Positions 12,386 through 64,000 of a stretch of 64,000 nucleotides of DNA are shown one piece after another. The first letter of the stretch is position 1. Each line of letters begins with the position of its first letter. The DNA is taken from the IMG/VR virus record IMGVR_UViG_3300010413_000002, positions 1-64,000 of that record; one strand, written 5' to 3'. The position numbers and the translations under genes are program-made. Under the pieces are notes generated by a model, which did not search any database, was not told where the DNA came from, and saw only the letters and a program-made list of their open reading frames with translations. Source of the DNA: a virus. Taxonomy: Duplodnaviria > Heunggongvirae > Uroviricota > Caudoviricetes.

Positions 12386-12667
12386 TTATAATTTTTCAAT
12401 ATAATTAACTACAATTCTATTACACTTCTCGGTTAATTTATCACTATCAAAAATTCTATCTATATATTTTTTAGGTAAATTTAAATGTTGATAACAACCA
12501 TCAGCAAAAATAGATTTAATAGCTTCTTCTTTTTTTCTTTCAAACAATTCCGCATAAGCAGGTTCTGTATATTCTTGTAAACCTGTATGATCTGTAGTAT
12601 AATCTAATCCATCATCATCTACTTCTTGTAATTTTACAAATTCTTTAATTAGTTGTTTCAATTTCAT
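12386..12667 (-). CDS. Hypothetical protein.
   Basis: 93-aa ORF. Confidence 0.45.
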   Translation of the reverse strand: MKLKQLIKEFVKLQEVDDDGLDYTTDHTGLQEYTEPAYAELFERKKEEAIKSIFADGCYQHLNLPKKYIDRIFDSDKLTEKCNRIVVNYIEKL

Positions 12668-13034
12668 TGTTTAAATAATTTTTTAAATTTTCTTCAGTTA
12701 AATCTTTTAAATCAATTTTTTTGTTATGAATTGAAATAGTTGTAATGTTTCTATCTAATAGATTAGCTTGTTTTTTTAATTCTTCAAGTGAAATATTATT
12801 ATCAACTGATGTAAAAAATTCTTCTTCTTTTCCATTGTTGTTATAACTAAAAATAACCGATGTTTTTTTAATTTCTTCAATCGATTTTTTATTTATTTTT
12901 AGTTCAAATCCTGCAATAGTAATAGATTTAACGTTGTTTTCTATTAAGTTTTCTAAAACAGAAAGCAATTTGTCTTCTTTTGGTATTTCATAAAGACCTT
13001 TTTTTCCGTTTTTATAAGATACGTTATATTTCAT
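12645..13034 (-). CDS. Hypothetical protein.
   Basis: 129-aa ORF. Confidence 0.45.
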   Translation of the reverse strand: MKYNVSYKNGKKGLYEIPKEDKLLSVLENLIENNVKSITIAGFELKINKKSIEEIKKTSVIFSYNNNGKEEEFFTSVDNNISLEELKKQANLLDRNITTISIHNKKIDLKDLTEENLKNYLNNEIETTN

Positions 13035-13065
13035 AAGTCCTCCATTTTTATTAATAAAATAAATT

Positions 13066-13623
13066 TTATAATTTTAATGTGTGGTTTTTAAAATTTATCA
13101 AAGCATTTAAATCTTTTTCTTTAAAAGTTATTAATTTATCAACCAATCCTTTTTTACATTTTTTTATAAAAGTAGATAGCTTTTCTTTTCCATCCATTAT
13201 AAAATTGTATTCATTATTGCATAAAATATTTTTATGATTAGATATTCTAACTGCAAAAAATATTTTTCCTTCGCTGTAATATTCGAAATATTTGCTAAAT
13301 TTCTTTGACAATTTCATAGTCTGTTCTATTTCTATTCCTTTTATACTTTTTAATTCATTTATTAAAGCGGTCATCTTTTTTTCAAATCTTTTATGCAAAC
13401 AATAAATAATGCTTAATTGTTTTTCTATAGAAATAAGTGAATATTCACTTTTTTTATTATTCTCTGCTTTTATAAATTTATCTTTTTCTCCAAATTTCTG
13501 TATTATTTTATTAGTAAATTTATCAGAAAAAATATAACCAACATTGTTATTTGAATACAAAGCGTATCTATTAAAGCTATTTTCTATTTCTTTTACAAAT
13601 TCATCATCTCTTAATATAAACAT
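13066..13623 (-). CDS. Hypothetical protein.
   Basis: 185-aa ORF. Confidence 0.5.
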   Translation of the reverse strand: MFILRDDEFVKEIENSFNRYALYSNNNVGYIFSDKFTNKIIQKFGEKDKFIKAENNKKSEYSLISIEKQLSIIYCLHKRFEKKMTALINELKSIKGIEIEQTMKLSKKFSKYFEYYSEGKIFFAVRISNHKNILCNNEYNFIMDGKEKLSTFIKKCKKGLVDKLITFKEKDLNALINFKNHTLKL

Positions 13624-13635
13624 TTTTTTTATTTG

Positions 13636-14034
13636 TTATTTTTTTGTATCCATAATATCAAAAATCATATTAGAATTTTCGTTTTTATCTTTTTTTGCAT
13701 TATTAGCCATACCAATAATAATATTTACAAAATCATCATTAGTTTTATTAAATATTTGACTTAAATAACCAACTACAAGACCTAAAGAACATGCAACAGA
13801 ATAAGCAGTTTGATTTTTTTGTTTATATAAAAATTTTACAGTTTTTCCAGCTAAATTCATTGCTTTTAAATATTGTTCTTTACTTTCTTTTTCTTGTTCA
13901 GTATTGACTTCGATTGTTTTAAGAAAAAGTTCTTTACTTTTTTTTAACATTTCGTCAAATTTTTTATCAAACTCTTTATTACTTAACATCTTCTTGTTCC
14001 TTATTATTAGTATCTTCATCAAAAATTTTATCAA
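13636..14034 (-). CDS. Hypothetical protein.
   Basis: 132-aa ORF. Confidence 0.45.
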   Translation of the reverse strand: MIKFLMKILIIRNKKMLSNKEFDKKFDEMLKKSKELFLKTIEVNTEQEKESKEQYLKAMNLAGKTVKFLYKQKNQTAYSVACSLGLVVGYLSQIFNKTNDDFVNIIIGMANNAKKDKNENSNMIFDIMDTKK

Positions 14035-14923
14035 TTATTGTAAATAACCACGGGGTTGTTGGTTCAAATTCTGGATGTTTTTCTGTTTTTTCTCTTAAAA
14101 TTGCAATCAACTCCTCAAAATAAGCTACATCTACACCAGTTAGTTGCTCTTCAAGAACAGAAGTGTTATTCAAATCTAATAATGATATTTGATAACACAT
14201 TTTAAAATATTCTCCTGCACTAATATTCCAACCTCTCTTAATAAACTTTCGACTTCTAATTACCGAAGTAATTGGATAAAGACTTCCACCATATTTTAGT
14301 TGTTTAGAAAGAAGCGATTCAAGAGCTTCTTTTTTTGTAATTAATTTATTTTTACTGTAATCATAATAATTAGTCGCATGAACAAAGTCATAATTCTTAT
14401 GTATTTCATCTGGCGTTCCGTAAAATCTTATTACAATTTGTATTTTGTCAGTTAAAGTTATTGCATTAGGACTAATAAAAGATACTTCAAATTTTTCCTT
14501 TTCTTTTTCTTTTTCTTCTTCTTCTTTTTCTTCAATTTTTTCATTACGCCAAAATCCTTTGTTTGGTATAAAAATTTTAACTCTATTTTTATCTAAATTT
14601 TCTAAAGCAATTGATACTTGTGTTTTTTGTCCAGTTATATTTTCATATTCATTCTCAAGGCTATCTATAGCTCCATCTAAAATTCTTAAATCTTTACAGT
14701 TAGTTTTTTCAACATAATATTGAGAAATAGCTTTTACGGCTTCTTTAGTTCTAAAATAAATATCAAAATCATTAACTTTTTCTTTCAAAAGCATTGAAGC
14801 TATAGAGCCTCCCGTAACTATTGTATTTTTAATAGCTAATTCCTTTACATTAGTATCGTCTATAGAATCTATCCATTTTTCTATTTTTTTATTTAAAATT
14901 TTTTTAATTGTTTTAATTTGCAT
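13979..14923 (-). CDS. Pol-beta-superfamily nucleotidyltransferase-fold protein (function unknown).
   Basis: TGGSIASMLLKEKVNDFDIYF fits the G[GS]-x(9-13)-D-x-[DE] minimal nucleotidyltransferase signature. 314 aa, with a poly-E/K linker. Confidence 0.4.
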   Translation of the reverse strand: MQIKTIKKILNKKIEKWIDSIDDTNVKELAIKNTIVTGGSIASMLLKEKVNDFDIYFRTKEAVKAISQYYVEKTNCKDLRILDGAIDSLENEYENITGQKTQVSIALENLDKNRVKIFIPNKGFWRNEKIEEKEEEEKEKEKEKFEVSFISPNAITLTDKIQIVIRFYGTPDEIHKNYDFVHATNYYDYSKNKLITKKEALESLLSKQLKYGGSLYPITSVIRSRKFIKRGWNISAGEYFKMCYQISLLDLNNTSVLEEQLTGVDVAYFEELIAILREKTEKHPEFEPTTPWLFTIIDKIFDEDTNNKEQEDVK

Positions 14924-15290
14924 TTTCCTCCTTTATACAACTTTCAACTAACAAAAGCATACGTGCTTTAAACGATTCGTTAGCTTTTAGTTTTTGAACG
15001 CTTCTTGTTATTACAGAATCGGCTTGCGATACAACTGTTTGAGAAATTTTTTTTATTACTTGTTTTTTAAGTTCTTCTTTAAACTCTTTTTGAGATAAAG
15101 CAGTTGAAATTATATTTTCAAATAAATTATTAATTTCAGAACTATGATTTTCCAAACATTTTTTATATATTTCATATAAAGGATTATTATAAGTTTCAGA
15201 AGTAATTTCAATTATACCTTTTTGCATATGAGTAAGAATTACTTTCATAATCTGTTCTTCTAATAAATCGATTTTATCTTTATTTGACAT
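14913..15290 (-). CDS. Hypothetical protein.
   Basis: 125-aa ORF. Confidence 0.45.
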   Translation of the reverse strand: MSNKDKIDLLEEQIMKVILTHMQKGIIEITSETYNNPLYEIYKKCLENHSSEINNLFENIISTALSQKEFKEELKKQVIKKISQTVVSQADSVITRSVQKLKANESFKARMLLLVESCIKEENAN

Positions 15291-15312
15291 ATTTATTTTT
15301 TCCTTTTATTTA

Positions 15313-15741
15313 TTAGCATCTAAATGGTAAAAATTCTTTATCTTCTTCTAATTTTTCTTTTATATATTTAAGTTTTGAATTCATTTTATTTTCAATCTCT
15401 AGTATATTTTTATAATTTAATTGTAATACTTTTGTATTCTTTTTAGTATATTTAGAATTAATATCTTCCATTGCTTTTCTTGAATTTAATATTAAAGCAT
15501 ATCTTAATAAACCACACCACCAACCTTCTTTGGTTTTACGTCTATCAATTAAATATTTATCATCTTCATTTATTATAACAAATTTATTTGTATTTTCTTT
15601 AGCTATTTCAAGATTTTCATTTCTTAATTCCATATATTCATTATATTCACGTTCTTTCATGTAAATATCAAAAGCTTTAAATTCTATACGTGAATTTTGA
15701 CATTCTATAGATTCTATTAATTCTTCTGCTCCTTGACCCAT
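15313..15741 (-). CDS. Hypothetical protein; first gene of the leftward block.
   Basis: 142-aa ORF next to the divergent control region. Confidence 0.5.
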   Translation of the reverse strand: MGQGAEELIESIECQNSRIEFKAFDIYMKEREYNEYMELRNENLEIAKENTNKFVIINEDDKYLIDRRKTKEGWWCGLLRYALILNSRKAMEDINSKYTKKNTKVLQLNYKNILEIENKMNSKLKYIKEKLEEDKEFLPFRC

Positions 15742-27974: not shown

Positions 27975-28402
27975 AAGATTTTAAGTTGTGTTATATTGAA
28001 GGAAATTTTGCTTATTTTACTACGCAAGATTTAGATAAGCAAACTGGAGATGATTGGAACGATGCTCCTTATGATCTCAATGCTGGAGAACCATATACTC
28101 CAACTATTTATTATCCCTCTGGAAAAAAAGATCCTAGAGATTGGACAAATGGAAAACCAAATTGGGAAATTAAAAAATTAGTTTGGGAAGGAGATTTTGA
28201 CGAAGCGAAAAATATTTATATGGAAGATATAAATTGTATTTATTGTGTAGATGATATAAATAACAAAAAAGTTCCTTGGTTAGAATATCAAGGATATTCT
28301 AATGAAGATCTTGAGATTAAAATATGGGCAGGATGTTCAATTAAAGAGTTTAAAAAATTAATTAAAAAAGGCGGTGGAAAAATTTATGTGGAGGAAAAAT
28401 GA
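27971..28402 (+). CDS. Hypothetical protein.
   Basis: 143-aa ORF. Confidence 0.45.
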   Translation: MKDFKLCYIEGNFAYFTTQDLDKQTGDDWNDAPYDLNAGEPYTPTIYYPSGKKDPRDWTNGKPNWEIKKLVWEGDFDEAKNIYMEDINCIYCVDDINNKKVPWLEYQGYSNEDLEIKIWAGCSIKEFKKLIKKGGGKIYVEEK

Positions 28403-30966
28403 AAACTAAATTAAATATAGTATATGTCTTAGTAGGACCAACATCTTGTGGAAAAAGTTATTTTTGTAACGAAATGAAACAAAAGCTTACTAAACAAGGA
28501 TTAAGAACCGTTATCTTATCTTCTGATGAAGAAAGAAGAAATACATTTGGCGAAAATCTCCATAAATACAATAAACAAATGCTTCAGTCAAGCGAAAAAG
28601 CATTTAATATCTTATATTATAAATTGGAACAATTAATGAAATATCCTAATAGACCTCATTTTATATTTGTTGATACTACAGGTTTATCAGAAGATTTTAG
28701 AAACGATATTATCAATATAGTAAAAAAGACAAATTATAACCTTGGTCTTATTGTATTTACATATAAAGAAAAGTCTGAATACTATAAACACATCTCAGAA
28801 GAAGACTTAGAAAAAGGTAAACATATTATAGATAGACATATAACAAGATTAAAGAAAGACGTATTTAAAACACTTTCTAAGAAAAAATATAATTTTTGTC
28901 ATAATATAACTGAAAAAGATTTTTCAAATATAAAGTTTGAAATTGAAGATTTAGACTTATATAAATCAACCTTTTTAACAGATAAGGAAAATTATCTTGT
29001 TATAAGCGACATTCATGGACATTTTGATGAATTTAAGAAATTATTAGAATTGAACGAAATCAAAATAGAAAAAGACAGGATAGCTTCCTCCCCCTATAGC
29101 AAAATAATAATAAATGGGGATACAATAGATAAAGGTAAGCAAAGCAAAGAAGTCTTAAAGTTTCTTTTAAACAACAAAGAACATTTTAGGTTTGTCATAG
29201 GAAATCACGAAAATTTTATATATAAGTATCTAAAAGGAGAAATAGATATTAATAAGTTGAATAAGGAAATTTTAAAACAGTTTTCTTCAGCGGAGCAATA
29301 TAAAGACGATAAAGAGTTTTTTTTATTGTTGGAAGAATATATAAATTTATGCGTTCCTTTCTTACAGAACAGTTATTTTATAGTAAATCATGCTCCTTGC
29401 AAAAATAAGTATTTAGGATTGCTAAACTTTAAGTCTTTAAAGAAACAAAGAAACTACTTTATAAACGATAGAGAAAAAGCTTTAGAAGAATTAAGGTTTG
29501 TACAAGAACAAAGTCGAGGTAACTACCCACTTCATATATTCGGGCATATTGCAGTTAAGAAAGTTTCAAAAATAAAGAATGAGATTTTTACAGATACTGG
29601 TGCTGGAAATAATCAAAAATTAACTGCTTTAGAATTATCTTACAAAGAATTTAAGGACTCATATTATACAAAAAACATATCGGTCGATTGCGAAGGAGAA
29701 CCCAAACAAGAAGGTTTAGAAATAGAAAAAAAGAAAGAAGTAGATTTTGACCTATTAGAACCAAAAGAAAGAGGAAGAATTTATTGGGCAATAGATAACA
29801 AAGTTCAATTCATATCAGGTACAATGCCTCCTTCTGCTTCAAGTGATGAATATGGATTAGAAAGTTTAGAAACTGCTATATCCTACTTCGAAAGTAAAGA
29901 CTACAAATTAGAAGATTTAGTATTCCAACCAAAGTATATGGGATCAAGATGTACGCTTTATCTAAATAGAGACATTGAAAAGTGTATGATGACTTCAAGA
30001 AAGGGCTATAGGATTAGGCGTTTATATGATAAAAACGGAGAAGAGATTACTGATTTTGTTGAAATATATAACAAATTTTTAGCAAAACCAAAACTAAAGA
30101 AACTATTAGAAGACGAAACAATAGAAACTATTGTTTTAGATGGCGAACTAATGCCTTGGTATGCTCTAGGAAGAAATCTAATAGAAAACACCTATGAAAA
30201 AGTTGCTGATTGCATAGAAAATGAACTAGAACTTTTAAAGGAAACTAATTTTGAAGAAGCTTTAAGTAAAGTTGATAAAGCATACAAAGATTTTAATTTT
30301 GAAGAACGACATAAAAACGAAAAAGCTAAAGATTTAGAAGCTGAAATAGGATACACTATCTATAAAACTTTTTTAAATTATAAGAATAGCAATTTTGCTC
30401 CTTTAAAAGATGTTGAAAGTAATTTAAAAGAATTTAAAAATCAAATAAGCCTATATGGCTCTAAAGAGGAAATAGATTATAAACCTTTTGATATGCTTAA
30501 AATTATTTACAAAGACGGAACTGAAAAAGTTAAAAATCCAAAAAAGGATAGTTCGCATGATGTTTTTTGGAAAGTAAATAGTAATGGATGCCAAAAATTC
30601 TCCAAAATAGAAGAATTAAAAGAATGGTATGAAATTATAACTAAAGATTTAAAATTAGAGGGCTGTGTGATTAAACCAGAGTTCTTAAAAGATGATTGTA
30701 TACCTTATATGAAAGTTCGTAATCCTAGGTACTTAAAATTAATCTACGGATATGATTATGATGATAAGGATAACTTAGAATATCTAATTAGAAACAAAAG
30801 AACAAAAAAGAAATGTCAAGTTGCAATAGAACAATTTAAATTGGGGCTAAAGTTGTTAAATTTCAAGGTAGACGAAATTACTAAAGAAAACGAGGACTAT
30901 AAACAAACTGTTGCCAAAATAATCTTTGAGGAAAAGAAAGAGACTGAAATTGACCCAAGATTGTAA
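28399..30966 (+). CDS. Trifunctional Pnkp-like RNA-repair enzyme: 5'-OH polynucleotide kinase, metallophosphoesterase (2',3'-phosphatase) and C-terminal ligase-like domain.
   Basis: P-loop VYVLVGPTSCGKSYF at the N-terminus. Central calcineurin-type motifs ISDIHGH, INGDTIDKG, IGNHE. C-terminal region with KYMGSR (candidate KxxG adenylyltransferase motif I). 855 aa, the same domain order and size as bacterial Pnkp. Confidence 0.7.
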   Translation: MKTKLNIVYVLVGPTSCGKSYFCNEMKQKLTKQGLRTVILSSDEERRNTFGENLHKYNKQMLQSSEKAFNILYYKLEQLMKYPNRPHFIFVDTTGLSEDFRNDIINIVKKTNYNLGLIVFTYKEKSEYYKHISEEDLEKGKHIIDRHITRLKKDVFKTLSKKKYNFCHNITEKDFSNIKFEIEDLDLYKSTFLTDKENYLVISDIHGHFDEFKKLLELNEIKIEKDRIASSPYSKIIINGDTIDKGKQSKEVLKFLLNNKEHFRFVIGNHENFIYKYLKGEIDINKLNKEILKQFSSAEQYKDDKEFFLLLEEYINLCVPFLQNSYFIVNHAPCKNKYLGLLNFKSLKKQRNYFINDREKALEELRFVQEQSRGNYPLHIFGHIAVKKVSKIKNEIFTDTGAGNNQKLTALELSYKEFKDSYYTKNISVDCEGEPKQEGLEIEKKKEVDFDLLEPKERGRIYWAIDNKVQFISGTMPPSASSDEYGLESLETAISYFESKDYKLEDLVFQPKYMGSRCTLYLNRDIEKCMMTSRKGYRIRRLYDKNGEEITDFVEIYNKFLAKPKLKKLLEDETIETIVLDGELMPWYALGRNLIENTYEKVADCIENELELLKETNFEEALSKVDKAYKDFNFEERHKNEKAKDLEAEIGYTIYKTFLNYKNSNFAPLKDVESNLKEFKNQISLYGSKEEIDYKPFDMLKIIYKDGTEKVKNPKKDSSHDVFWKVNSNGCQKFSKIEELKEWYEIITKDLKLEGCVIKPEFLKDDCIPYMKVRNPRYLKLIYGYDYDDKDNLEYLIRNKRTKKKCQVAIEQFKLGLKLLNFKVDEITKENEDYKQTVAKIIFEEKKETEIDPRL

Positions 30967-37092: not shown

Positions 37093-37355
37093 ATTTCTAA
37101 AAAACTTCCCTTTTAAATTTTAATATATATAATATATCTTATGGCAATTTAAACGTTGTATATAATAGATGATATGGACACGGGAGCATTACCCGTCTCT
37201 TCCACCAATTGATTATAAGGGGGAGAAATAGATTTGACATACATTCAAAGATACAATCTTTGCTCAGAGTGATTTCTGTGAAAGTCAAAAAAATAACTGG
37301 AGAAGAAATTCTTTTAGCCGCCTAAAAATTCAAAATTTTAAGACGGAACGGTTTG

Positions 37356-37388
37356 GGAGAGCCGTTTTACCAAACTCTCCTTTGTTTT
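37356..37388. terminator. Bidirectional rho-independent terminator between convergent blocks.
   Basis: GGAGAG-ccgttttaccaaa-CTCTCC stem-loop followed by TTTGTTTT. It sits at the stop of the minus-strand tdk and downstream of the plus block. Confidence 0.5.
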
Positions 37389-42839: not shown

Positions 42840-43118
42840 TTAATATTCAACATTACTTAGTTTTATACTTTTGCACTTTTTGCATTTATAAACCGCTACT
42901 TTTTTTGTGGGTGATTGTAAATAACAATCTAATTTGTATTCGTGAAAATGTGGCGGAAAAAATCCATAACTATAAAAAAATACTAATAAAAACGAAGAAA
43001 TTATATTAATACCAAAAAAAGTTATAGTATCATATCTAAAAATTGCTCTTAAAACTATATTGACAATCCAAATTAACAAAAATATAATACTTGTTATTTT
43101 TTTACTTTTTTCAGCCAT
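42840..43118 (-). CDS. Small membrane protein with C-terminal Cys pair.
   Basis: Two transmembrane segments plus CKKCKS. Confidence 0.4.
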   Translation of the reverse strand: MAEKSKKITSIIFLLIWIVNIVLRAIFRYDTITFFGINIISSFLLVFFYSYGFFPPHFHEYKLDCYLQSPTKKVAVYKCKKCKSIKLSNVEY

Positions 43119-43137: not shown

Positions 43138-43524
43138 TTATCTCATAAACTTTATTAAATTCTTAATAGTATCAATAAAATTTTTCTTCTTTTCTTTATC
43201 TTTTACATCTTGCAAAAGTCTACTTATAATTAAAATTTCTTTGTTTAAATCATCGTAATCAATGTTTTCAATAATGTTAGAATTATTGTTTTCATTGTTA
43301 TTATCTAAACCATCAAAAAAGTATATAATAGGAACTTTTAAAATTTTTGAAAGTTTGTAAAGCTTTCCAGCAGAGATTCTATTCTCTCCCTTTTCATACT
43401 TTTGTATTTGTTGAAAAGTAATTTTCATTAATTTTCCTACTTTTTGTTGGGATAAGCCCAAATTAATTCTTCTTAATTTTAACTTTTTTCCAACATGAAT
43501 GTCAATGTTTGTTACTCTTTTCAT
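43138..43524 (-). CDS. XRE-family (Cro/CI-type) HTH transcriptional regulator.
   Basis: LKLRRINLGLSQQKVGKLMKITFQQIQKYEKGENRISAGKLYKLSKIL. Confidence 0.75.
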   Translation of the reverse strand: MKRVTNIDIHVGKKLKLRRINLGLSQQKVGKLMKITFQQIQKYEKGENRISAGKLYKLSKILKVPIIYFFDGLDNNNENNNSNIIENIDYDDLNKEILIISRLLQDVKDKEKKKNFIDTIKNLIKFMR

Positions 43525-45842: not shown

Positions 45843-45892
45843 TTTAATCTATTATGAATTATTCTTTATTTTATAAAAAGAATTATAACTTA

Positions 45893-45941
45893 AAGAAAAT
45901 AATTGTCAAGTAAAATCCGACAGAAAAATATTTTTTAAAAA
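45893..45941 (-). promoter_or_regulatory. Leftward sigma70-type promoter (TTGACA-16-TATAAT) plus conserved upstream cassette.
   Basis: Minus-strand TTGACA at + coordinates 45915-45920 and TATAAT at 45893-45898. The 35-nt block 45907-45941 is identical to 49159-49193. Confidence 0.55.
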
Positions 45942-45967
45942 AAAGTAAGTTATACACAAAAAAAACT

Positions 45968-46101
45968 TGACAATTAAAAATGTTTAATATATAATTATAT
46001 TAGATTACAAATTGTGGCTCAGTTTTAATCTATACAACTTTAATCTCCGAAAGAGATTTTTTTTCATAGAGGATCGATATTTATTATTGATCCTTTTTTT
46101 G
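45968..46101 (+). ncRNA. Candidate ~100-nt small RNA: promoter, two hairpins and an intrinsic terminator.
   Basis: TTGACA (45968-45973), 17-nt spacer, TATAAT (45991-45996). Hairpin AATCTC-CGAAA-GAGATT. Terminator AGGATCGAT-atttatt-ATTGATCCT plus a T7 run ending about 46101. No ORF. Confidence 0.45.
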
Positions 46102-46114
46102 TTTTTGCAAAAAA

Positions 46115-46285
46115 ATAAGAGGAGATTTTAATTCCCCTCTATTATCGTCACACTATCCCGTACGAACCAATTTACATTGGTATTCAAGGATAGATAGTTA
46201 ATTTTGCTATCTATCCACTATCACTACTACTATCTAATGCAATTGCATTAATACTAATATATAATATCTTTTTAAAAAGTCAAGA
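46115..46285 (-). ncRNA. Candidate minus-strand small RNA convergent with the plus-strand sRNA.
   Basis: Leftward promoter (TTGACT-16/17-TATATT on the minus strand, about 46250-46285). 10-bp perfect hairpin GGATAGATAG-9nt-CTATCTATCC (46189-46217). Minus-strand terminator AGAGGGG-aattaaaat-CTCCTCT plus a U-run (about 46115-46148). Confidence 0.4.
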
Positions 46286-46474
46286 AAAATTTGAGTTTTT
46301 AAAAAACCATATTAAAAATATTATAATAATTGCAAAAATCATATTTCCTCCTTATAGAGTGAGAATAGTAGTAGTGCATAAAAAAATAACACTCTCACTC
46401 CAAAAAACTAGATTTTTATTAAATTAGTTTCTATTTAATTATAGCTAATAAAAATAAAAAATCAAGATGTTTTC

Positions 46475-46759
46475 TTAATTTTTGCAAATATTAGTATAAG
46501 ACTTTATTGATTCTTCTCTTAGTTCGTTTTGTAATTTTTTTATTATTTTTTTAATTTTTTTCATTGGAAGAAGTTTGTTTGGATTTTTATTTTCTTTTCC
46601 AATTAAATATCCTTTTATAAAAATCAAAATTTCATCCGATTCATACAACGATAAATACGGAATAATATATTTGTTTTTACAAATTTCTTCTATCTCTTTT
46701 TTGTTTAAAGTTTTCATAGTGATAATATTGGTTGATAAAAAAGTAATTTTTACTACCAA
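46475..46759 (-). CDS. Hypothetical protein.
   Basis: 94-aa ORF. Confidence 0.4.
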   Translation of the reverse strand: MVVKITFLSTNIITMKTLNKKEIEEICKNKYIIPYLSLYESDEILIFIKGYLIGKENKNPNKLLPMKKIKKIIKKLQNELREESIKSYTNICKN

Positions 46760-48133: not shown

Positions 48134-48815
48134 TCGTTAATTTGTAATTATGAAAATCAGAATAATCTATTTTAAAGTGATGACATATCATTTTTAATAT
48201 TAGCATTCCATAATCACAATATTCGTATTCATAACTATCTTTTATATTTTGATAAAGTTTATCATTTATTAGCCATACCCAAGCTAGCATGTGATTAATA
48301 GACCTTTCTGCCGATATTCCTCTTTTATTTAAGGCTTTGTTAAAGGCAAATGGCATATAATCTTTTATTTCTTTTAAAGGATTAGTAAGTTTTTTCCATT
48401 TTTCTTTTCCTAATTCTATATCTTTTATGTATTCTTCTTTAAAAATGTCCATTTTCTTTATATTTTTAAAAGATAAATACAGTATTAAATCGTCTTTTTG
48501 CCAACCAAATATATTTTCACATTTTTCGATATGGTCAATTATTTCTTCTTGTTTTCTTATAATTTTTGGAGCTGGCAACTTTTTAAGTTTAATGAATTTT
48601 TTTGTTTCTTTTTCATCTAAATATCTTTCTAAATCAGAAAATGAAACTTCTTTGTATACTGGTTCTCCTTTAATACAATTACATCCGCTATCAAAATATA
48701 ATTTATCGTCTTTTACGAAATATCCTAATGGATAATCACAAATACTACATCTTCCCGTTTCAAAAAATCCGTGTCTTTTAATTGCTTCTAATAAAGTTTC
48801 TATATTTTTTTTCAT
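48096..48815 (-). CDS. Hypothetical protein with N-terminal Cys cluster.
   Basis: 239 aa; CSICDYP...CNC. Confidence 0.5.
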   Translation of the reverse strand: MKKNIETLLEAIKRHGFFETGRCSICDYPLGYFVKDDKLYFDSGCNCIKGEPVYKEVSFSDLERYLDEKETKKFIKLKKLPAPKIIRKQEEIIDHIEKCENIFGWQKDDLILYLSFKNIKKMDIFKEEYIKDIELGKEKWKKLTNPLKEIKDYMPFAFNKALNKRGISAERSINHMLAWVWLINDKLYQNIKDSYEYEYCDYGMLILKMICHHFKIDYSDFHNYKLTNEQKVIVIQRIK

Positions 48816-48824
48816 TAATCCTCC

Positions 48825-49019
48825 TTAAAAAAATAAAATTATATGCACAATAGCAGAAACTACCATTATAATCTCTGAAAAAATCAATAATTTCCTATTT
48901 AACAAAATAATAGAAATAATTGTCATTCCTAAACCAATTAAGAACATATAGATACTAACTTCATTAGTATATAAAAAGTTTGCTAAAGTTTCTATCATAG
49001 AATTATTCTTTATTTCCAA
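48825..49019 (-). CDS. Small membrane protein.
   Basis: 64 aa hydrophobic. Downstream of promoter cassette copy B. Confidence 0.4.
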   Translation of the reverse strand: MEIKNNSMIETLANFLYTNEVSIYMFLIGLGMTIISIILLNRKLLIFSEIIMVVSAIVHIILFF

Positions 49020-49924
49020 AAATAATATGTAGTTTACTCATTGTTTTTTAAGTTTGTTAAAAGAATAATAGCAATAAAAATCTAGTATAAAAATATATCT
49101 CAATAATTTAATTAATCATAAAATTGCTATTACTCTTAAACTATACTATACAATATAAAAAATAATTGTCAAGTAAAATCCGACAGAAAAATAATTATTG
49201 GATTTTTCTTGTTTTTTAAAAAATTTTTTGTTATTCTTCTTTTGATTATTTTAGTTAATTATCTAAATATAGTAGCTTTTGTTTCTTGCACGTCTTATAA
49301 TTTCCATATTTGACTCCTTCAAAAGCTACTACTCTTCATAAAAAAATAAGATATTTTCACAGAAAAAATGTTAGTTATGACTTCCGTAATTTAAAAAATA
49401 TAGTAATATTAGAATAGAAATAATTATTTTCTTAGAGAAACTGGCTCGCCTGCAAAGCACAGAGAGAAAAAGAATCCAGCTACAACAGCTATTCTTTTGG
49501 TGTCGACATATAAGAGCCATAAGATAACATAAAAAAACTTATATGCCGACAAATGTTGAATGAGTAATTCTTTATTTTTATAAAAGATATTTTCTTTAAA
49601 GTCAAGCAAAAAATAAAAAAGCTCTTGAAAGAACATATTTGGCAATATCTCTTCTCTCAAAAGCCTTTTTTTCAGGACTTGATTATATACAACAGAGTCA
49701 TATATAACTTAATTATAAGTAATACTTTTTTAAAAGTCAAGAAATATTGAATATTTTTAAAAACTTAGGCTCTATTCCCGCTCTTGCTAAGGAGATAAAG
49801 CCTATATAAAAAATTTCAACAAACAAAATTGCAATGTATCATTCCTCTAATAAAAAGCATTTTTGTTTGCTATATAAATTATAGTATAAAGATTTTTAAT
49901 TGTCAAGAAAAATCATAAAAATAC

Positions 49925-49953
49925 TTGACACTTTCAAAAAAGTATTGTATAAT
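49925..49953 (+). promoter_or_regulatory. Perfect-consensus sigma70 promoter (TTGACA-17-TATAAT) firing rightward into a non-coding region.
   Basis: TTGACA 49925-49930, 17-nt spacer, TATAAT 49948-49953. Back-to-back with a leftward TTGACA-17-TATAAT promoter at about 49870-49898. Confidence 0.6.
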
Positions 49954-49959
49954 ATTATA

Positions 49960-50420
49960 AGTATAATAAGTAGCTCAGGGAAAGAGTTCTTGGTAGACAA
50001 GAGGGTCATAGGTTAAAGTCCTATCTTACTTATACTAGAAAGATAGATTAAAGATAGCCTTGAAGATTTTAAGAGTCAATCAGCGTTCAGTACAAACGCA
50101 TATCTTTCGCAGAATGGTACAAAGAGTTTAATAATTGAACACATTGGGTTAAAAATTACTACATTAAGCAAGAGATAACTACTCAGTAATTAAGTAGTAT
50201 TTGTTAGTAAATTTCACTAATTCTTTGTACCAAAAAAACTAGAGAGTAGCCAAAATGCTATATCCAAAAAGGAAACACAAGTATTAAAGGTAGTTGTAAA
50301 AAAAGTTTGATAAATAATGCAAAAACTACATTGTGAAGAAAATATTGCTTAAAGGTATCCTAAATCATTTAGTGCAAACTCGGCAGTATATTCCCTCTCT
50401 AGTTAAAAAACTAGACAATA
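49960..50420 (+). ncRNA. Candidate structured non-coding RNA (~450 nt) downstream of the consensus promoter.
   Basis: No ORF of 60 aa or more on either strand across 49661-50448. Long-range complementarity AAACTAGAGAG (about 50237) with CTCTCTAGTT (about 50398). Local hairpins ACTACT-cagtaatta-AGTAGT and TCTAGTT-aaaaa-AACTAGA. Confidence 0.35.
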
Positions 50421-50448
50421 AAGAAAAAATTATTTAAAATAAAATTTT

Positions 50449-50895
50449 CTACGCTATCTTTTTAATAAACCTCTTATGTTTCCAATATCCCTCATGCCTA
50501 TCATTAATATAGCTCAATAGATTGCTTCCATCTCCGTCTCTATAATAGATTATATCTCTACCAAACACCGCAACAAAACACTTCAATTCATTATAAGACA
50601 AAGAAGATACGTACTCTAAAGGAATTATATTTATTGTTGGCAAGTTGTTATTTCTCGCAAAGTCGTAAAAGAATTTCAACATTCTAAAATCAAGCCTCTT
50701 TCCATAAAGCATAGCCTCATCTACCATTTCTTCAATAACAAACACTATTCCTCTAAGAATAAAAGACAAATACGCACCGTTTTTATTTCTATGATTCCTT
50801 ATAGAATAGCATAAACTCTCCGCATAACAATTACTAACTATATTATTAGCTCTTCTATAAGCATTTAATTGTATTTTAATTTCCCTATCTTTCAT
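50449..50895 (-). CDS. Hypothetical protein.
   Basis: 148-aa ORF. Leftward promoter TTGACA-17-TAGTAT at about 50900-50930. Confidence 0.5.
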   Translation of the reverse strand: MKDREIKIQLNAYRRANNIVSNCYAESLCYSIRNHRNKNGAYLSFILRGIVFVIEEMVDEAMLYGKRLDFRMLKFFYDFARNNNLPTINIIPLEYVSSLSYNELKCFVAVFGRDIIYYRDGDGSNLLSYINDRHEGYWKHKRFIKKIA

Positions 50896-51386
50896 AGTTT
50901 AATACTACCAACAAAACATTAATTTGTCAAGCAAAATCAAACAGAAAAAACCTTAAACAAAGGAAGGAAAGATAAAAAAGTTGTGAGTATAGTAAAAGGT
51001 TTATGTAAAAAGCTAAAAATTGTAGTAATAGCTACATTTCGGTAGTGAGTATTGTTCTTCTTTTAATTTTTAATCAAAGTCTTTATTAATAGGATTCTTT
51101 GCATTGTATACAAGATTTAAAAAACTACAAAATTGTAGTAGAACGTTATCTAAAATAGAGAAAAGTTATGTGTTGAGGTTGTATAGGTTGATGAATAAAA
51201 GGTTTGCGTGATTTTTTTAGTTACTAACTTTTTGGGTGGTTTTTGGGGTTTTTTCAAAATTTGAATAGGTGTAATAAAAATATTACACTAAAATGAAAAA
51301 AATCTTTTTATTTTCAAAAAAATTGCAAGTTTTCTCGTTAAAAGTGTGTATTTTTCTAAAAATCTTCATTTTTCTAAATCCTTTAT

Positions 51387-51638
51387 TTATAGGCATCGAG
51401 GCAACTTCTCTCACTACGAAAACACCCCAAAAAAAGACAAAAAAATATCCTGTATTTTTTCTCAAAACACAAGATTAAATTGCATATTACTATACTTAAA
51501 TGTATTATATTTGATACTTTATATTTGATAATTTTAGATTAAAGCCTAAAAAAGGCTTACAACTTTAGCCAAAAATAGCTAAAATCGTAAACCCCTATGA
51601 ATAAAGGAACGAGGCAACTTCTCTCACTACGAAAACAC
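51387..51638. repeat. Perfect 29-nt direct repeat pair (CGAGGCAACTTCTCTCACTACGAAAACAC) separated by 194 nt.
   Basis: Copies at 51387-51415 and 51610-51638. Each is preceded by CCTTTATTTATAGG or its near reverse complement CCTATGAATAAAGG. Only spurious overlapping mini-ORFs lie here. Confidence 0.5.
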
Positions 51639-51645
51639 TTTATTT

Positions 51646-52335: not shown

Positions 52336-52549
52336 ATTTACCTCCTTTTATGTCAATAATTACCTCTTCTTGAGGTGTAAATTGAGTCTTACTATCTAAG
52401 TAAGAATTGTAGATAATTGTTAAAAATCCCATAATTATAATAAATGTTATTATTAATATTAAATCTTTTAGCATCTTGCCTCCTTTTTTATTAAAAAAAC
52501 AACTAACAATTGAAAAACGTAGATACCTATAAATAAAGAAACCAGTCAA
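52325..52549 (-). CDS. Small membrane protein.
   Basis: 74 aa, one transmembrane segment. Confidence 0.35.
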   Translation of the reverse strand: MTGFFIYRYLRFSIVSCFFNKKGGKMLKDLILIITFIIIMGFLTIIYNSYLDSKTQFTPQEEVIIDIKGGKYVQ

Positions 52550-52606
52550 CTTGCTTCACAGGGAAAATACAAATAATTTTCCTTATTTAAAAATACACTA
52601 CAACTT

Positions 52607-61871: not shown

Positions 61872-61899
61872 TTGACTTTTATATTTTTTGTTCTATAGT
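61872..61899 (+). promoter_or_regulatory. Sigma70-type promoter (TTGACT-16-TATAGT) upstream of the tRNA-like cluster.
   Basis: TTGACT 61872-61877 and TATAGT 61894-61899, about 100 nt upstream of the first tRNA-like element. Confidence 0.45.
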
Positions 61900-62005
61900 T
61901 TATTCAATGGCAAAAGAAATTCCTATAAAAAAAATAATTTAGGTTTATTGATTATTTCTCGCCATGAAAATAAATAGACAAAAAAAGTTCCTATATATTA
62001 GGAAA

Positions 62006-62107
62006 ACAGGGGTACGATGGTTCAAATCCATCCGCTATCTTAAGATGGCGTGGCAGAGTGGTTATGCACCTGTGTGTATTACTTTTCGTCTATTAAAAAA
62101 ACACAGG
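62006..62107 (+). tRNA. tRNA-like element alpha with apparent permuted order. The 3' half (anticodon-stem 3' strand, variable loop, T-arm, acceptor 3' strand) lies upstream of its matching 5' half (acceptor 5' strand, D-arm, anticodon-stem 5' strand).
   Basis: 3' half 62006-62040: ACAGG-GGTAC-GATGG-TTCAAAT-CCATC-CGCTATC-T. TAA linker. 5' half 62044-62073: GATGGCG-TG-GCAG-AGTGGTT-ATGC-A-CCTGT. The acceptor strands GATGGCG and CGCTATC pair 7/7 (one G-U). CCTGT pairs with ACAGG. The extended stem 62069-62075 with 62101-62107 encloses a 25-nt loop. Confidence 0.4.
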
Positions 62108-62132
62108 AAGTTCCTATTTTAATGCTCGATAA

Positions 62133-62240
62133 GCAGGAGGTCGTAGGTTCGAGTCCTACCTTCCGCATTTGCGGTTGTAGCTCAGTTGGTAGAGCGCCTT
62201 TATGTACTTCCCGTTTTTATTAATGATAAAGGCAGTTCCT
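62133..62240 (+). tRNA. tRNA-like element beta. A canonical tRNA 3' half (62133-62167) is followed by a canonical 5' half (62171-62201), but the halves do not pair well with each other. Possibly a degenerate, split or trans-paired tRNA.
   Basis: 3' half GCAGG-AGGTC-GTAGG-TTCGAGT-CCTAC-CTTCCGC-A. 5' half GCGGTTG-TA-GCTC-AGTTGGTA-GAGC-G-CCTTT. Acceptor complementarity is only 5/7. An 8-bp stem GCCTTTAT / ATAAAGGC encloses a 22-nt loop. Confidence 0.3.
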
Positions 62241-62288
62241 ATAAATCGTTTCACAAAAGATTACTGCCCATCAAAACAAAGGAAAATT

Positions 62289-64000
62289 ATGAAAACTTTA
62301 AAATTATTTAATGCTGTTATATCAAAAGAAAATAAGACAGTAAAACCTTTTATTTCAACAAAAGGATATATTATTGAATCTAATGCTATGTGGGCAGTGA
62401 ATGATATTATAAAATTTTATGACGAACAAAGTCTAACAGGAAACGATTTAAACAAAACTTTTCATAAATCTTGGCAAAAAATAAAAGAAAGCACAAGATT
62501 TGAATTGTTTTTAGAACAAATACAACATTATATTTCTACCTATGGAAGTAATTTTAAAGATGAAATATATATTCCTAATGAAGTTTTGAACGTTCCAAAT
62601 TTAAAAATTATATTTAAAGTAATAAAAGCATACACAAAAGAAGAATTGATAGAAAAATGTCTATTTTTATTAAAGTCTGGTATAGCTTTAAAAGAAGAAA
62701 CAATAAATGATGTTCTTTCTATATTAGTTGATGAATTAAAATATGAATTTACAGGCAAAGAGGGAATAAAAAATAAAGAAGCTATTATAAAAATTGCTGA
62801 TTTATATAATGTACTTCCTCAGGATACAATGGAATTTTTCAGATATATTATATATCGTTCTACTGGACAATCTCTTTTAATTAAGAGTAATGACTTAATA
62901 GAAGCTATTAAGGACTCAAATTACAATCCTACAGCTCAATTTAATAAATTTGGACTAAAGAGACTATCGGAGATATTTAATAGGTTTAAACCTTTGTTTT
63001 TGGCGTTTAAAAAACATTGTCCATCGACAATAAATAAAATCGCTAAACTTTCAAAGAAATTTCATAAAGCTTTGGTACAAAACCCATTAAACAATGTAAC
63101 AAACAAATTGTTAAATTTAGAAGATTTACATTGGTTGGATAATGCTACAATTTATGCTTTATTTAAAGCTTTATCAGCTTGTTATTCAAGAAAAAATGGA
63201 CAAGATAGTTTTATTTATAAGATAAGAAATGGAAAATCTTGGGTAAAAGAAAACAAAATAAACACCGAAATTTGTGAGAAAAACTTTAAAAGTTTATTAG
63301 ATTATTTAAAAAGAAGAGTAAATTTAAAAGATAAAAAATTCTATTTGCCGAAAGACATTAAATTTGCTTTGCCAACTTCTGAAAAGATGTTTGTTGGTAA
63401 TATACCAGTTGGAAGTAAATTTTATGGAGAAAAACTAGCAGTAGGTATTTATTGGGAAGATAAATGGGGAGCAAGAGACTTAGATTTATCAGGAATTAAT
63501 ATTGATGGTAAAGTAGGTTGGAATTCGTCTTACAATCAAGGAATTGGTAGTTTAATGTATTCTGGAGATATAACTTCAGCACCAAATGGAGCTGTTGAAT
63601 ATTTATATGCTAATGAAGGATTAAATGAGCCAACTTTAGTTAAAAACAATGTTTATAATGGCAAAAATGATTGTGGATATAAAATTATAGTAGGAAAAGG
63701 AGATGAGATCACAAAAGACTACATGATGAATCCTAATAACTTATTTATGGAAGCAAAATGTAATTCTGTTCAAGTGCAAACAATTTTAGGAATTTTCTTA
63801 CCAGAAGAAAAAGGTCAATCTTTTGTGTTGTTAAACTTTGGTGCTGGACATATTAGAGTTTCTGGAAATTCTGAAATATCTAATATTGCCACAAAAGCTT
63901 TATTGCAACAATATAAAGATTTTATTTCTTTAAATGTAATATTGCCAAAACTTGGAGCAAAAATAGTAGAGGAATCAGAAGAGGCTGACTATGATTTAAG
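62289..64000 (+). CDS. Large hypothetical protein, partial (more than 570 aa; open frame runs off the window end).
   Basis: RBS AAAGGAAAA then ATG at 62289. Hand translation MKTLKLFNAVISKENKTVKPF... reached the window end with no stop. No plus-strand ORFs are listed here in the track, as expected for an unterminated frame. No recognisable motif. Confidence 0.5.
   Translation, partial: MKTLKLFNAVISKENKTVKPFISTKGYIIESNAMWAVNDIIKFYDEQSLTGNDLNKTFHKSWQKIKESTRFELFLEQIQHYISTYGSNFKDEIYIPNEVLNVPNLKIIFKVIKAYTKEELIEKCLFLLKSGIALKEETINDVLSILVDELKYEFTGKEGIKNKEAIIKIADLYNVLPQDTMEFFRYIIYRSTGQSLLIKSNDLIEAIKDSNYNPTAQFNKFGLKRLSEIFNRFKPLFLAFKKHCPSTINKIAKLSKKFHKALVQNPLNNVTNKLLNLEDLHWLDNATIYALFKALSACYSRKNGQDSFIYKIRNGKSWVKENKINTEICEKNFKSLLDYLKRRVNLKDKKFYLPKDIKFALPTSEKMFVGNIPVGSKFYGEKLAVGIYWEDKWGARDLDLSGINIDGKVGWNSSYNQGIGSLMYSGDITSAPNGAVEYLYANEGLNEPTLVKNNVYNGKNDCGYKIIVGKGDEITKDYMMNPNNLFMEAKCNSVQVQTILGIFLPEEKGQSFVLLNFGAGHIRVSGNSEISNIATKALLQQYKDFISLNVILPKLGAKIVEESEEADYDL

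Follow-up and report, generated by a model that had tools for sequence, protein, structure and literature searches.

The stretch of DNA analysed here, positions 1 to 64,000 of the virus record IMGVR_UViG_3300010413_000002, is referred to as the window (64,000 nt). It contains, at positions 49020-50448, an island of approximately 1.4 kb with very little coding capacity and several strong promoters. We read this island, with somewhat better than even confidence, as a group of non-coding RNA genes, each transcribed on its own, in a novel phage of large size and high AT content. The RNA that leads rightward starts with a cloverleaf resembling a transfer RNA (tRNA), which is followed by a long folded trailer; the RNAs that lead leftward are predicted to be short.

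Coding potential and promoters of the island

The longest open reading frame (ORF) in the ORF list for 49020-50448 has 78 aa and a TTG start (49424-49660, minus strand). Codon-usage log-odds are below zero in all six frames over about 49050-50450, and above zero in the flanking genes. The 78-aa ORF, with negative log-odds, is most likely spurious, as the original prediction had supposed. When TGA, TAG or TAA was read as sense, each singly, no ORF spanning the island appeared. A recoded or frameshifted gene across the island can be rejected because of the negative codon log-odds and because no frame is opened by reassignment. The claim of an ORF-poor island is thus borne out, and the finding that had been named as speaking against it, a non-canonical or frameshifted coding gene across the island, was looked for and not encountered. 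Only two small ORFs in the island are preceded by a Shine-Dalgarno (SD) sequence, the 14-codon MEIIRRARNKSYYI (49307-49263, minus strand) and a 10-codon ORF with a TTG start at 49834.

The sigma-70-type promoter sites of the island that matter for its interpretation are the following:

49925-49953, plus strand: rightward promoter, perfect TTGACA-17-TATAAT, predicted start A49960
49906-49878, minus strand: leftward promoter of unit U1, perfect consensus
49740-49712, minus strand: leftward promoter of unit U2, 11/12 consensus
49605-49577, minus strand: leftward promoter of unit U3, TTGACT-17-TATAAA, 10/12, a fifth and weaker site
49145-49172, minus strand: leftward promoter, TTGACA-16-TATAGT, 11/12 (cassette copy B), drives an operon that starts with a small membrane-protein ORF (48825-49019)

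The two perfect promoters stand back to back, with the -35 hexamers of 49925-49953 (plus strand) and 49906-49878 (minus strand) 18 bp apart. Under a first-order Markov model of the window, 0.15 sites with at least 11/12 matches are expected in the island and four are present; for perfect sites, the expectation is 0.003 and the count is two. At a lenient threshold of 9/12, the island is not enriched (19 sites, versus 19.5 in shuffles), and therefore only the strong promoter sites count. The high promoter density that had been claimed is accordingly real at 11/12 or better, and absent at 9/12. As for individual sites, the perfect rightward promoter was confirmed at the position first given, and the leftward promoters are all present, two of them with corrections: the perfect one sits at 49906-49878 instead of 49870-49898, and the one placed at 49572-49601 exists at 49605-49577, as a 10/12 match.

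The island promoters are members of a cassette family that recurs across the phage; its extended core is CTTGACAATTA, and further copies lie at about 45.9, 46.3, 50.9, 56.2, 56.6 and 57.9 kb. Cassette copy B (49159-49199) and the stretch 45896-45936 are 95% identical. For the bodies that the promoters drive, no similar copy was found elsewhere in the window. A fifth perfect TTGACA-17-TATAAT occurs at 43060-43088 (plus strand), facing against the minus-strand gene flow. It is predicted to give an RNA of about 200 nt, antisense to a 128-aa gene (43138-43524), until a terminator-like hairpin at 43260-43297.

Predicted leftward transcription units and the start of the operon

Terminators were sought by scanning the whole 64-kb window for hairpins followed by a U-run, and the stability of folds was compared with that of shuffled sequences (z). 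The leftward promoters are followed by these features:

49759-49906, minus strand: unit U1, start A49871, 5'-terminal long hairpin 49871-49818, terminator 49804-49766 with U-run, predicted RNA of about 111 nt
49612-49740, minus strand: unit U2, start A49705, 5'-terminal hairpin 49705-49685, terminator 49669-49616 with U-run, predicted RNA of about 94 nt
49436-49605, minus strand: unit U3, start at about 49566, hairpin 49551-49501, two GC-richer hairpins, weak terminator-like hairpin 49479-49441
49263-49331, minus strand: stem around an SD sequence and small ORF, 12 bp (49331-49320 / 49281-49270), z -2.8

U1 and U2 fold far better than expected by chance (z -4.7 and -5.0), and in neither case was any of 200 shuffles as stable. 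In comparison, 160-nt windows across the neighbouring genes have z scattered around 0. The terminator of U1 has a folding free energy (dG) of -16.9. The terminator of U2 is bidirectional and, with dG -21.6, the second strongest in the window. Together, they are two of the three strongest terminator hairpins of the 64 kb, and each lies about 90-110 nt past a promoter of at least 11/12. The layout of an intrinsically terminated small RNA gene (promoter, short ORF-free body, hairpin and U-run) is found in U1 and U2, and weakly in U3, which is the least certain unit (fold z -2.7, terminator-like hairpin dG -8.3). The hairpin that the original prediction had noticed near 49498-49546 belongs to U3; it is indeed present, as 49501-49514 / 49538-49551, with 13/14 positions complementary. 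In every unit, including both units of a sibling island at 45843-46475, the first helix starts at the predicted +1. Such a helix would be as expected for RNAs that are built for stability.

Further leftward, the 12-bp stem encloses the SD sequence GAAGGAG (49320-49314) and most of the putative 14-codon ORF. The promoter at 49172-49145 is followed by a 15-bp hairpin in the 5' untranslated region of the operon (49061-49075 / 49123-49137, z -3.4).

The position of the units makes it conceivable that this part of the island regulates the leftward operon as its leader. Its tandem promoters, each with a terminator behind it, would act as a device for timing or attenuation. Early transcripts would end at the terminators, later antitermination by a phage or host factor would allow expression of the membrane-protein and 239-aa genes, and the short RNAs would be by-products. 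U1-U3 are indeed co-oriented with the operon and directly upstream of it, the U3 terminator is weak, and no strong terminator separates U3 from the hairpin around the small ORF or from the operon. However, the operon has its own 11/12 promoter (49172-49145), the terminators of U1 and U2 are very strong, neither an antiterminator protein nor such an RNA family was detected in the vicinity, and the rightward tRNA-like RNA would be left unexplained. We therefore consider a leader of this type rather unlikely.

Two other ORF-poor islands lie close by. The sibling island (45843-46475) has divergent perfect promoters of its own at 45909 (minus strand) and 45967 (plus strand), and a sliding-window z down to -9.8. 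Its predicted RNAs are a plus-strand RNA of about 100 nt with two terminators (z -4.5) and a GC-richer minus-strand RNA of about 140 nt (46250-46108, z -3.9). The third island (50896-51645) carries an exact 29-nt direct repeat, CGAGGCAACTTCTCTCACTACGAAAACAC, at 51397-51425 and 51610-51638, with a third, 69%-identical copy at 52542-52570. The copy at 51610-51638 lies just past the stop codon of a minus-strand 229-aa gene (51646). The strongest terminator of the window (51593-51554, dG -22.8) is also found in the third island, where z is -7.8 on the minus strand.

The tRNA-like cloverleaf and its structured trailer

The original prediction had the rightward promoter fire into about 450 nt without an ORF. 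The absence of an ORF stands, and a tRNA-like element at the start of the transcript had been missed. The features of the transcript and of its 3' border are:

49960-50036, plus strand: tRNA-like cloverleaf, supported by an Rfam tRNA match and the minimum-energy fold
50038-50465, plus strand: ORF-free trailer of about 430 nt, directly 3' of the cloverleaf
50083-50099, plus strand: trailer hairpin, ensemble pairing probability 0.96
50115-50125 / 50222-50232, plus strand: closing helix of domain A, ensemble pairing probability 0.98
50237-50246 / 50395-50404, plus strand: closing helix of domain B, ensemble pairing probability 0.85
50050-50071 / 50440-50461, plus strand: possible closing helix P1, ensemble pairing probability about 0.2
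50413-50459, minus strand: terminator of a convergent 148-aa gene (50449-50895), dG -10.1, then UUUUUU; overlaps the 3' strand of P1

Transcription from the perfect rightward promoter, whose -10 hexamer ends at 49953, is predicted to begin at A49960, the first base of the cloverleaf helix. In a permissive scan of 48900-50600, the Rfam tRNA model (RF00005) matches 49964-50032 with 33.0 bits, versus a gathering score of 29, and E 1.3e-4; in a 28-kb search, the same match has E 0.0021. An Rfam scan had been among the checks proposed originally, and in the island it yields this tRNA match and nothing else. When 49960-50037 is folded in isolation, the cloverleaf is the minimum-energy structure. The acceptor stem has 11 bp (49960-49970 with 50025-50036, C50029 bulged), and no CCA is encoded. 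The D arm (49973-49987) consists of a 4-bp stem and the 7-nt loop AGGGAAA, which carries A14, R15, GG (G18-G19) and A21. The variable loop GGGUC (5 nt) ends with C48. The core retains the R15-Y48 pair, U8 and A9. The T arm (50008-50024) has a 5-bp stem ending with G53-C61 and the loop UUAAAGU, in which U54, U55, R57 and A58 are present, as is the GG of the D-loop, and position 56 is an A.

The anticodon arm departs from that of a canonical tRNA as well. It spans 15 instead of 17 nt (49988-50002), with 5 bp and the 5-nt loop GUAGA; drawn with a 7-nt loop, GGUAGAC, it has a G at position 33 and thus no U33. The cloverleaf therefore does not have a canonical anticodon arm with a 5-bp stem, a 7-nt loop, U33 and a purine at position 37. 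ARAGORN did not call a tRNA for the element at 49960-50036. By its nucleotides, the element is best described as a tRNA mimic and not a decoding tRNA; it would be unable to decode because of the shortened anticodon arm, the lack of U33 and the altered T-loop (A56).

The same departures could be the marks of decay. According to this explanation, the island is a junk spacer, in which promoter cassettes were spread by recombination into degraded genes, the cloverleaf is what is left of a phage tRNA gene in decay, and the trailer is functionless. The repetition of the cassettes across the region agrees with it, as do the loss of U33, C56 and a full anticodon arm, the rejection by ARAGORN and the lack of homologues; moreover, a distant relative phage has a real tRNA island that includes low-scoring tRNA-like elements as well. 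However, all four stems of the cloverleaf pair fully apart from one bulge, and most nucleotides of the tertiary core are intact, although random decay should break stems as readily as loops. With intact stems behind a perfect consensus promoter, the element does not resemble a decaying pseudogene. The terminators of the island are strong and precisely placed, and the trailer folds far better than its shuffles, which is also difficult to reconcile with junk. Decay is thus quite unlikely in our view.

The trailer has a fold z of -4.44, and none of 100 shuffles was as stable. The long-range complementarity of AAACTAGAGAG (50236) with CTCTCTAGTT (50395), which had been pointed out originally, is present and coincides with the closing helix of domain B. 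What gives it weight is solely that the domain closed by it is stable in the ensemble (p=0.85). The original feature list was not complete: neither the tRNA-like element nor the intrinsic terminators were in it, and the helix that closes domain A was absent as well. The trailer has no match in Rfam, and the loop motif UCAGUA that is common to two trailer hairpins occurs at chance frequency.

A strong promoter that fires into about 500 nt of AT-rich, ORF-free DNA would also fit a transcription-activated replication origin. The rightward transcript would then serve as a primer or give an R-loop where AT-rich DNA unwinds, comparable to ColE1 RNA II or the T7 and T4 origins, and a weak 9/12 antisense promoter at 50079-50051 might supply an RNA I-like countertranscript. 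The other hallmarks of an origin are absent. There are neither iterons nor DnaA-box-like sites in the island, the only tandem repeat is a trivial one of 9 nt, and besides the promoter cassettes no direct-repeat families were found. The cumulative GC skew changes direction near 16 kb and near 40 kb, in step with gene orientation, and not at 49-50 kb, and the DnaB, helicase and clamp genes are 20-30 kb away. The transcription-dependent origin that had been offered as one option consequently lacks support, and we regard it as very improbable.

The 3' end of the rightward RNA bears on another alternative. On the plus strand, the hairpin 50413-50459 is weak (dG -3.2), and the 3' end is therefore not defined by a terminator; the RNA may run antisense into the 148-aa gene. 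This is the basis for an antisense or toxin-antitoxin module, in which the rightward RNA would control the 148-aa gene (50449-50895), or the leftward RNAs would control the 14-codon ORF, whose SD sequence and start codon are sequestered in the 12-bp stem. Against such a module, neither the 148-aa protein nor the 14-aa peptide is a small hydrophobic toxin (the ORFs preceded by SD sequences encode a basic 14-mer and a 10-mer), PADLOC, Pfam and NCBIfam gave no match, and no strong antisense promoter faces the micro-ORF. Its probability appears to be very low.

Interpretation and comparison with known systems

The window belongs to a novel, large and very AT-rich phage (about 24% GC). Among its genes are those for a DnaB-type helicase, a second helicase, sliding-clamp-like, RecT-like and YqaJ-like proteins, a thymidine kinase and a glycosyltransferase. 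An 855-aa RNA-repair enzyme of PNKP type is encoded at 28399-30966 (plus strand), with kinase (AAA_33), metallophosphatase and PNKP-ligase domains. A two-piece (circularly permuted) transfer-messenger RNA (tmRNA) gene lies at 37102-37383 (plus strand), with 101 bits for Rfam tmRNA_permuted, 99 bits for alpha_tmRNA and no ARAGORN call. The closest known phages have only about 30-50% protein identity. Since the relatives of several small proteins are found in Alphaproteobacteria phages, and since the tmRNA is of the alpha type, there are hints of an AT-rich alphaproteobacterial host. The thymidine kinase, compared with genome contigs, gave no clue to the host. The island is surrounded by small, mostly uncharacterised genes, and this neighbourhood is probably an early region. 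The comparison of the neighbouring proteins with Pfam, PHROGs, NCBIfam and PADLOC was not informative.

Homologues of the island RNAs were sought in several ways. A blastn search (word size 11) with 48800-50900 found no match among 50,697 phage records and 72,556 plasmids. In IMG/VR, nothing matched the exact patterns taken from the tRNA-like element and from the promoter cassette. The flanking 148-aa and 239-aa proteins have no IMG/VR relatives; among 5.8 billion clusters, they match only themselves, in one JGI contig of 122,666 bp and in one identical 3.4-kb Logan contig (SRR14699974). A structure-aware pattern, with three loops fixed and the stems free, selected 47 metagenome and 26 genome stretches (the metagenome collection lacks the phage's own contig), none of which forms a cloverleaf; the best has 12/21 stem positions paired. 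A scan of IMG/VR with the 16-nt promoter core gave 82 single, mostly chance matches. One of them, contig L155, led to contig L157, and these two are the only relatives found. They share with the window only a 570-aa ORF (62289 onward), about 12 kb from the island, and have no synteny with the island.

This ORF (62289-64000, plus strand, 570 aa or more) has homologues with 62% and about 50% identity in the two contigs (L157 7607-9301; L155 2054-3754) and no match in Pfam, PHROG, NCBIfam or PDB. Its C-terminal part, judged by eye, looks similar to a TerD-like beta domain. In L157, a tRNA island at 12449-15393, with 13 tRNA genes according to ARAGORN and 14 Rfam tRNA matches (E up to 0.5), follows 3 kb downstream, and the protein may for this reason be related to tRNA. 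Short, low-scoring tRNA-like elements in the L157 island (13054-13118 and 15199-15263, 35-37 bits) have a truncated anticodon arm, and 13348-13426 gives a match of mascRNA or tmRNA type. Non-decoding tRNA-like elements may thus be common in such phages.

Directly upstream of the 570-aa ORF, at 61872-62290 (plus strand), the window carries two tandem permuted tRNA mimics of YrlA type, in the order T arm, acceptor hairpin, D arm, behind a 10/12 promoter (61872-61899). The first (about 62008-62073, located by eye) has the acceptor CGCUAUC-UUAA-GAUGGCG and the stem ACAGG/CCUGU. The second (62135-62200) matches Rfam YrlA with 33 bits (E 2e-5), below the gathering score of 69. An Rfam match to a tRNA with a 59-nt insert (62044-62167) is an artefact, composed of the 5' half of the first mimic and the 3' half of the second. 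The motif RTTCCTAT occurs in this region in four copies of the same orientation. No Ro60/TROVE protein was found, and the 570-aa ORF, tested as a candidate, was not supported as such by Pfam and PDB sequence searches.

The interpretation of the island as a cluster of non-coding RNA genes relies on promoters, terminators, a cloverleaf and a thermodynamic signal that the sequence analysis shows. Several points weigh against it. Plus-strand RNA lacks a convincing terminator, the helix P1 is uncertain (p 0.2), and a 10-nt complement in an AT-rich stretch of 500 nt is, by a hand estimate, near chance level. The tRNA-like element alone is thermodynamically ordinary (z -0.9). In the ensemble of the full transcript, pairing with the trailer out-competes the cloverleaf (acceptor p ~0, T stem p 0.17), and because of this competition at equilibrium the cloverleaf would need co-transcriptional folding. 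For U3, the promoter matches at just 10/12 and the terminator is weak. No homologue of the island RNAs was found in the phage, plasmid, IMG/VR, metagenome and genome collections, and hence covariation and conservation lend no support. The function of the RNAs we infer entirely. Nevertheless, the leader, the decayed spacer, the origin and the antisense or toxin-antitoxin module are all less well supported than the cluster of RNA genes. Of the options in the original prediction, regulatory RNAs fit the anatomy, with promoter-terminator units, a cloverleaf at +1 and an unusually stable trailer fold. That description was incomplete, and missed the defining elements.

Expression of the RNAs, processing of the cloverleaf by tRNA-maturation enzymes, and any part played in taking over the host or countering its defences are inferred from these features. 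The host sigma-70 RNA polymerase would read the RNAs from the phage-specific consensus promoter cassettes. Leftward, U1, U2 and the weaker U3 would each comprise a promoter, a stem-loop at the predicted +1, a short body and an intrinsic terminator, and their small RNAs could be base-pairing or protein-binding regulators of the early phase. The fourth leftward promoter (49172-49145) would start the protein-coding operon. Rightward, the cloverleaf would fold first during transcription and bury the 5' triphosphate end. It would probably be recognised by RNase P, RNase Z or 3' exonucleases, which would split a free tRNA mimic from the long RNA. The released products might then act in trans on host RNA and tRNA biology or on tRNA-directed defence. 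A tRNA-centred role is plausible, given the tmRNA, the YrlA-like mimics and the PNKP-type enzyme in the same phage. The present status is that of a single-genome prediction, of which the long RNA led by a tRNA mimic is the most worthwhile part. If the RNAs are real, the island is a dense and very strongly promoted block of non-coding RNA genes, including a tRNA mimic that is fused to a large folded RNA.

The island RNAs are new sequences of an already known kind. T4 species 1 and 2 RNAs and lambda OOP are examples of phage small RNAs and of stable RNAs from tRNA regions. The leftward units resemble them in being predicted short transcripts with host-type promoters and intrinsic terminators, among early or accessory genes. 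They differ in lacking any sequence or Rfam relation, and three tandem units together with a divergent perfect promoter pair are unusually dense.

The cloverleaf invites comparison with other tRNA mimics. YrlA is the bacterial and phage Y RNA, tied to Ro60/Rsr, with a circularly permuted tRNA-like domain in which the acceptor stem is closed by a loop. The eukaryotic mascRNA is a tRNA mimic cut from MALAT1, and stands at the 3' end of its long RNA. Like both, the island element has a tRNA-like core, a putative elbow and a defective or absent anticodon arm, and is likely to be seen by tRNA-processing enzymes. Like mascRNA, it would be attached covalently to a long RNA until processing frees it, but it stands at the 5' end. 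In contrast to YrlA (RF02553), it has the normal tRNA order, and YrlA had no match in 48900-50600 at E up to 10.

Some phage tRNAs counter tRNA-cleaving defence systems such as retron Ec78 (bioRxiv 10.1101/2023.03.15.532788) and Septu (PMC13096335). The island element is likewise a tRNA-shaped phage RNA with predicted strong expression, in a phage that also encodes PNKP-type RNA repair. However, the anti-defence tRNAs decode, and replace or resist cleaved host tRNAs. As the island element cannot do so, only the role of a decoy or competitor is conceivable in tRNA defence, which by this analogy is speculation.

The large 'ornate' RNAs ROOL and GOLLD of phages and prophages frequently have tRNA genes as neighbours or are joined covalently to tRNAs (PMC12286853). 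The island shares with them a phage-encoded non-coding RNA of several hundred nucleotides, here a multi-domain RNA of about 430 nt that follows a tRNA-shaped module in one unit. Membership in ROOL (RF03087) or GOLLD (RF01998) is excluded by the covariance models: 48900-50600, compared with 4227 Rfam families at E up to 10, gave no match to either. The trailer is also shorter than either RNA, the element linked to it does not decode and only mimics a tRNA, and a conserved pseudoknotted architecture is not demonstrable in the trailer because it has no homologues. One may go further and regard the rightward transcript as the founding member of a new class of phage RNAs, functionally like ROOL and GOLLD and unrelated to them in sequence. 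A non-decoding tRNA mimic at the 5' end would be processed by the host, and would release or position the structured RNA of about 430 nt. With the tmRNA, the YrlA-like mimics and the PNKP-type enzyme, it would belong to a tRNA-mimicry toolkit directed against host tRNA biology or tRNA-targeting defence. We consider this proposal a long shot. The biology of ROOL and GOLLD is still unexplained, and the conflict between phages and bacteria over tRNA is an active field. If the RNAs are real, the island would provide an independent and compact example, with a clear promoter and processing signal, and thus a handy entry point for experiments.

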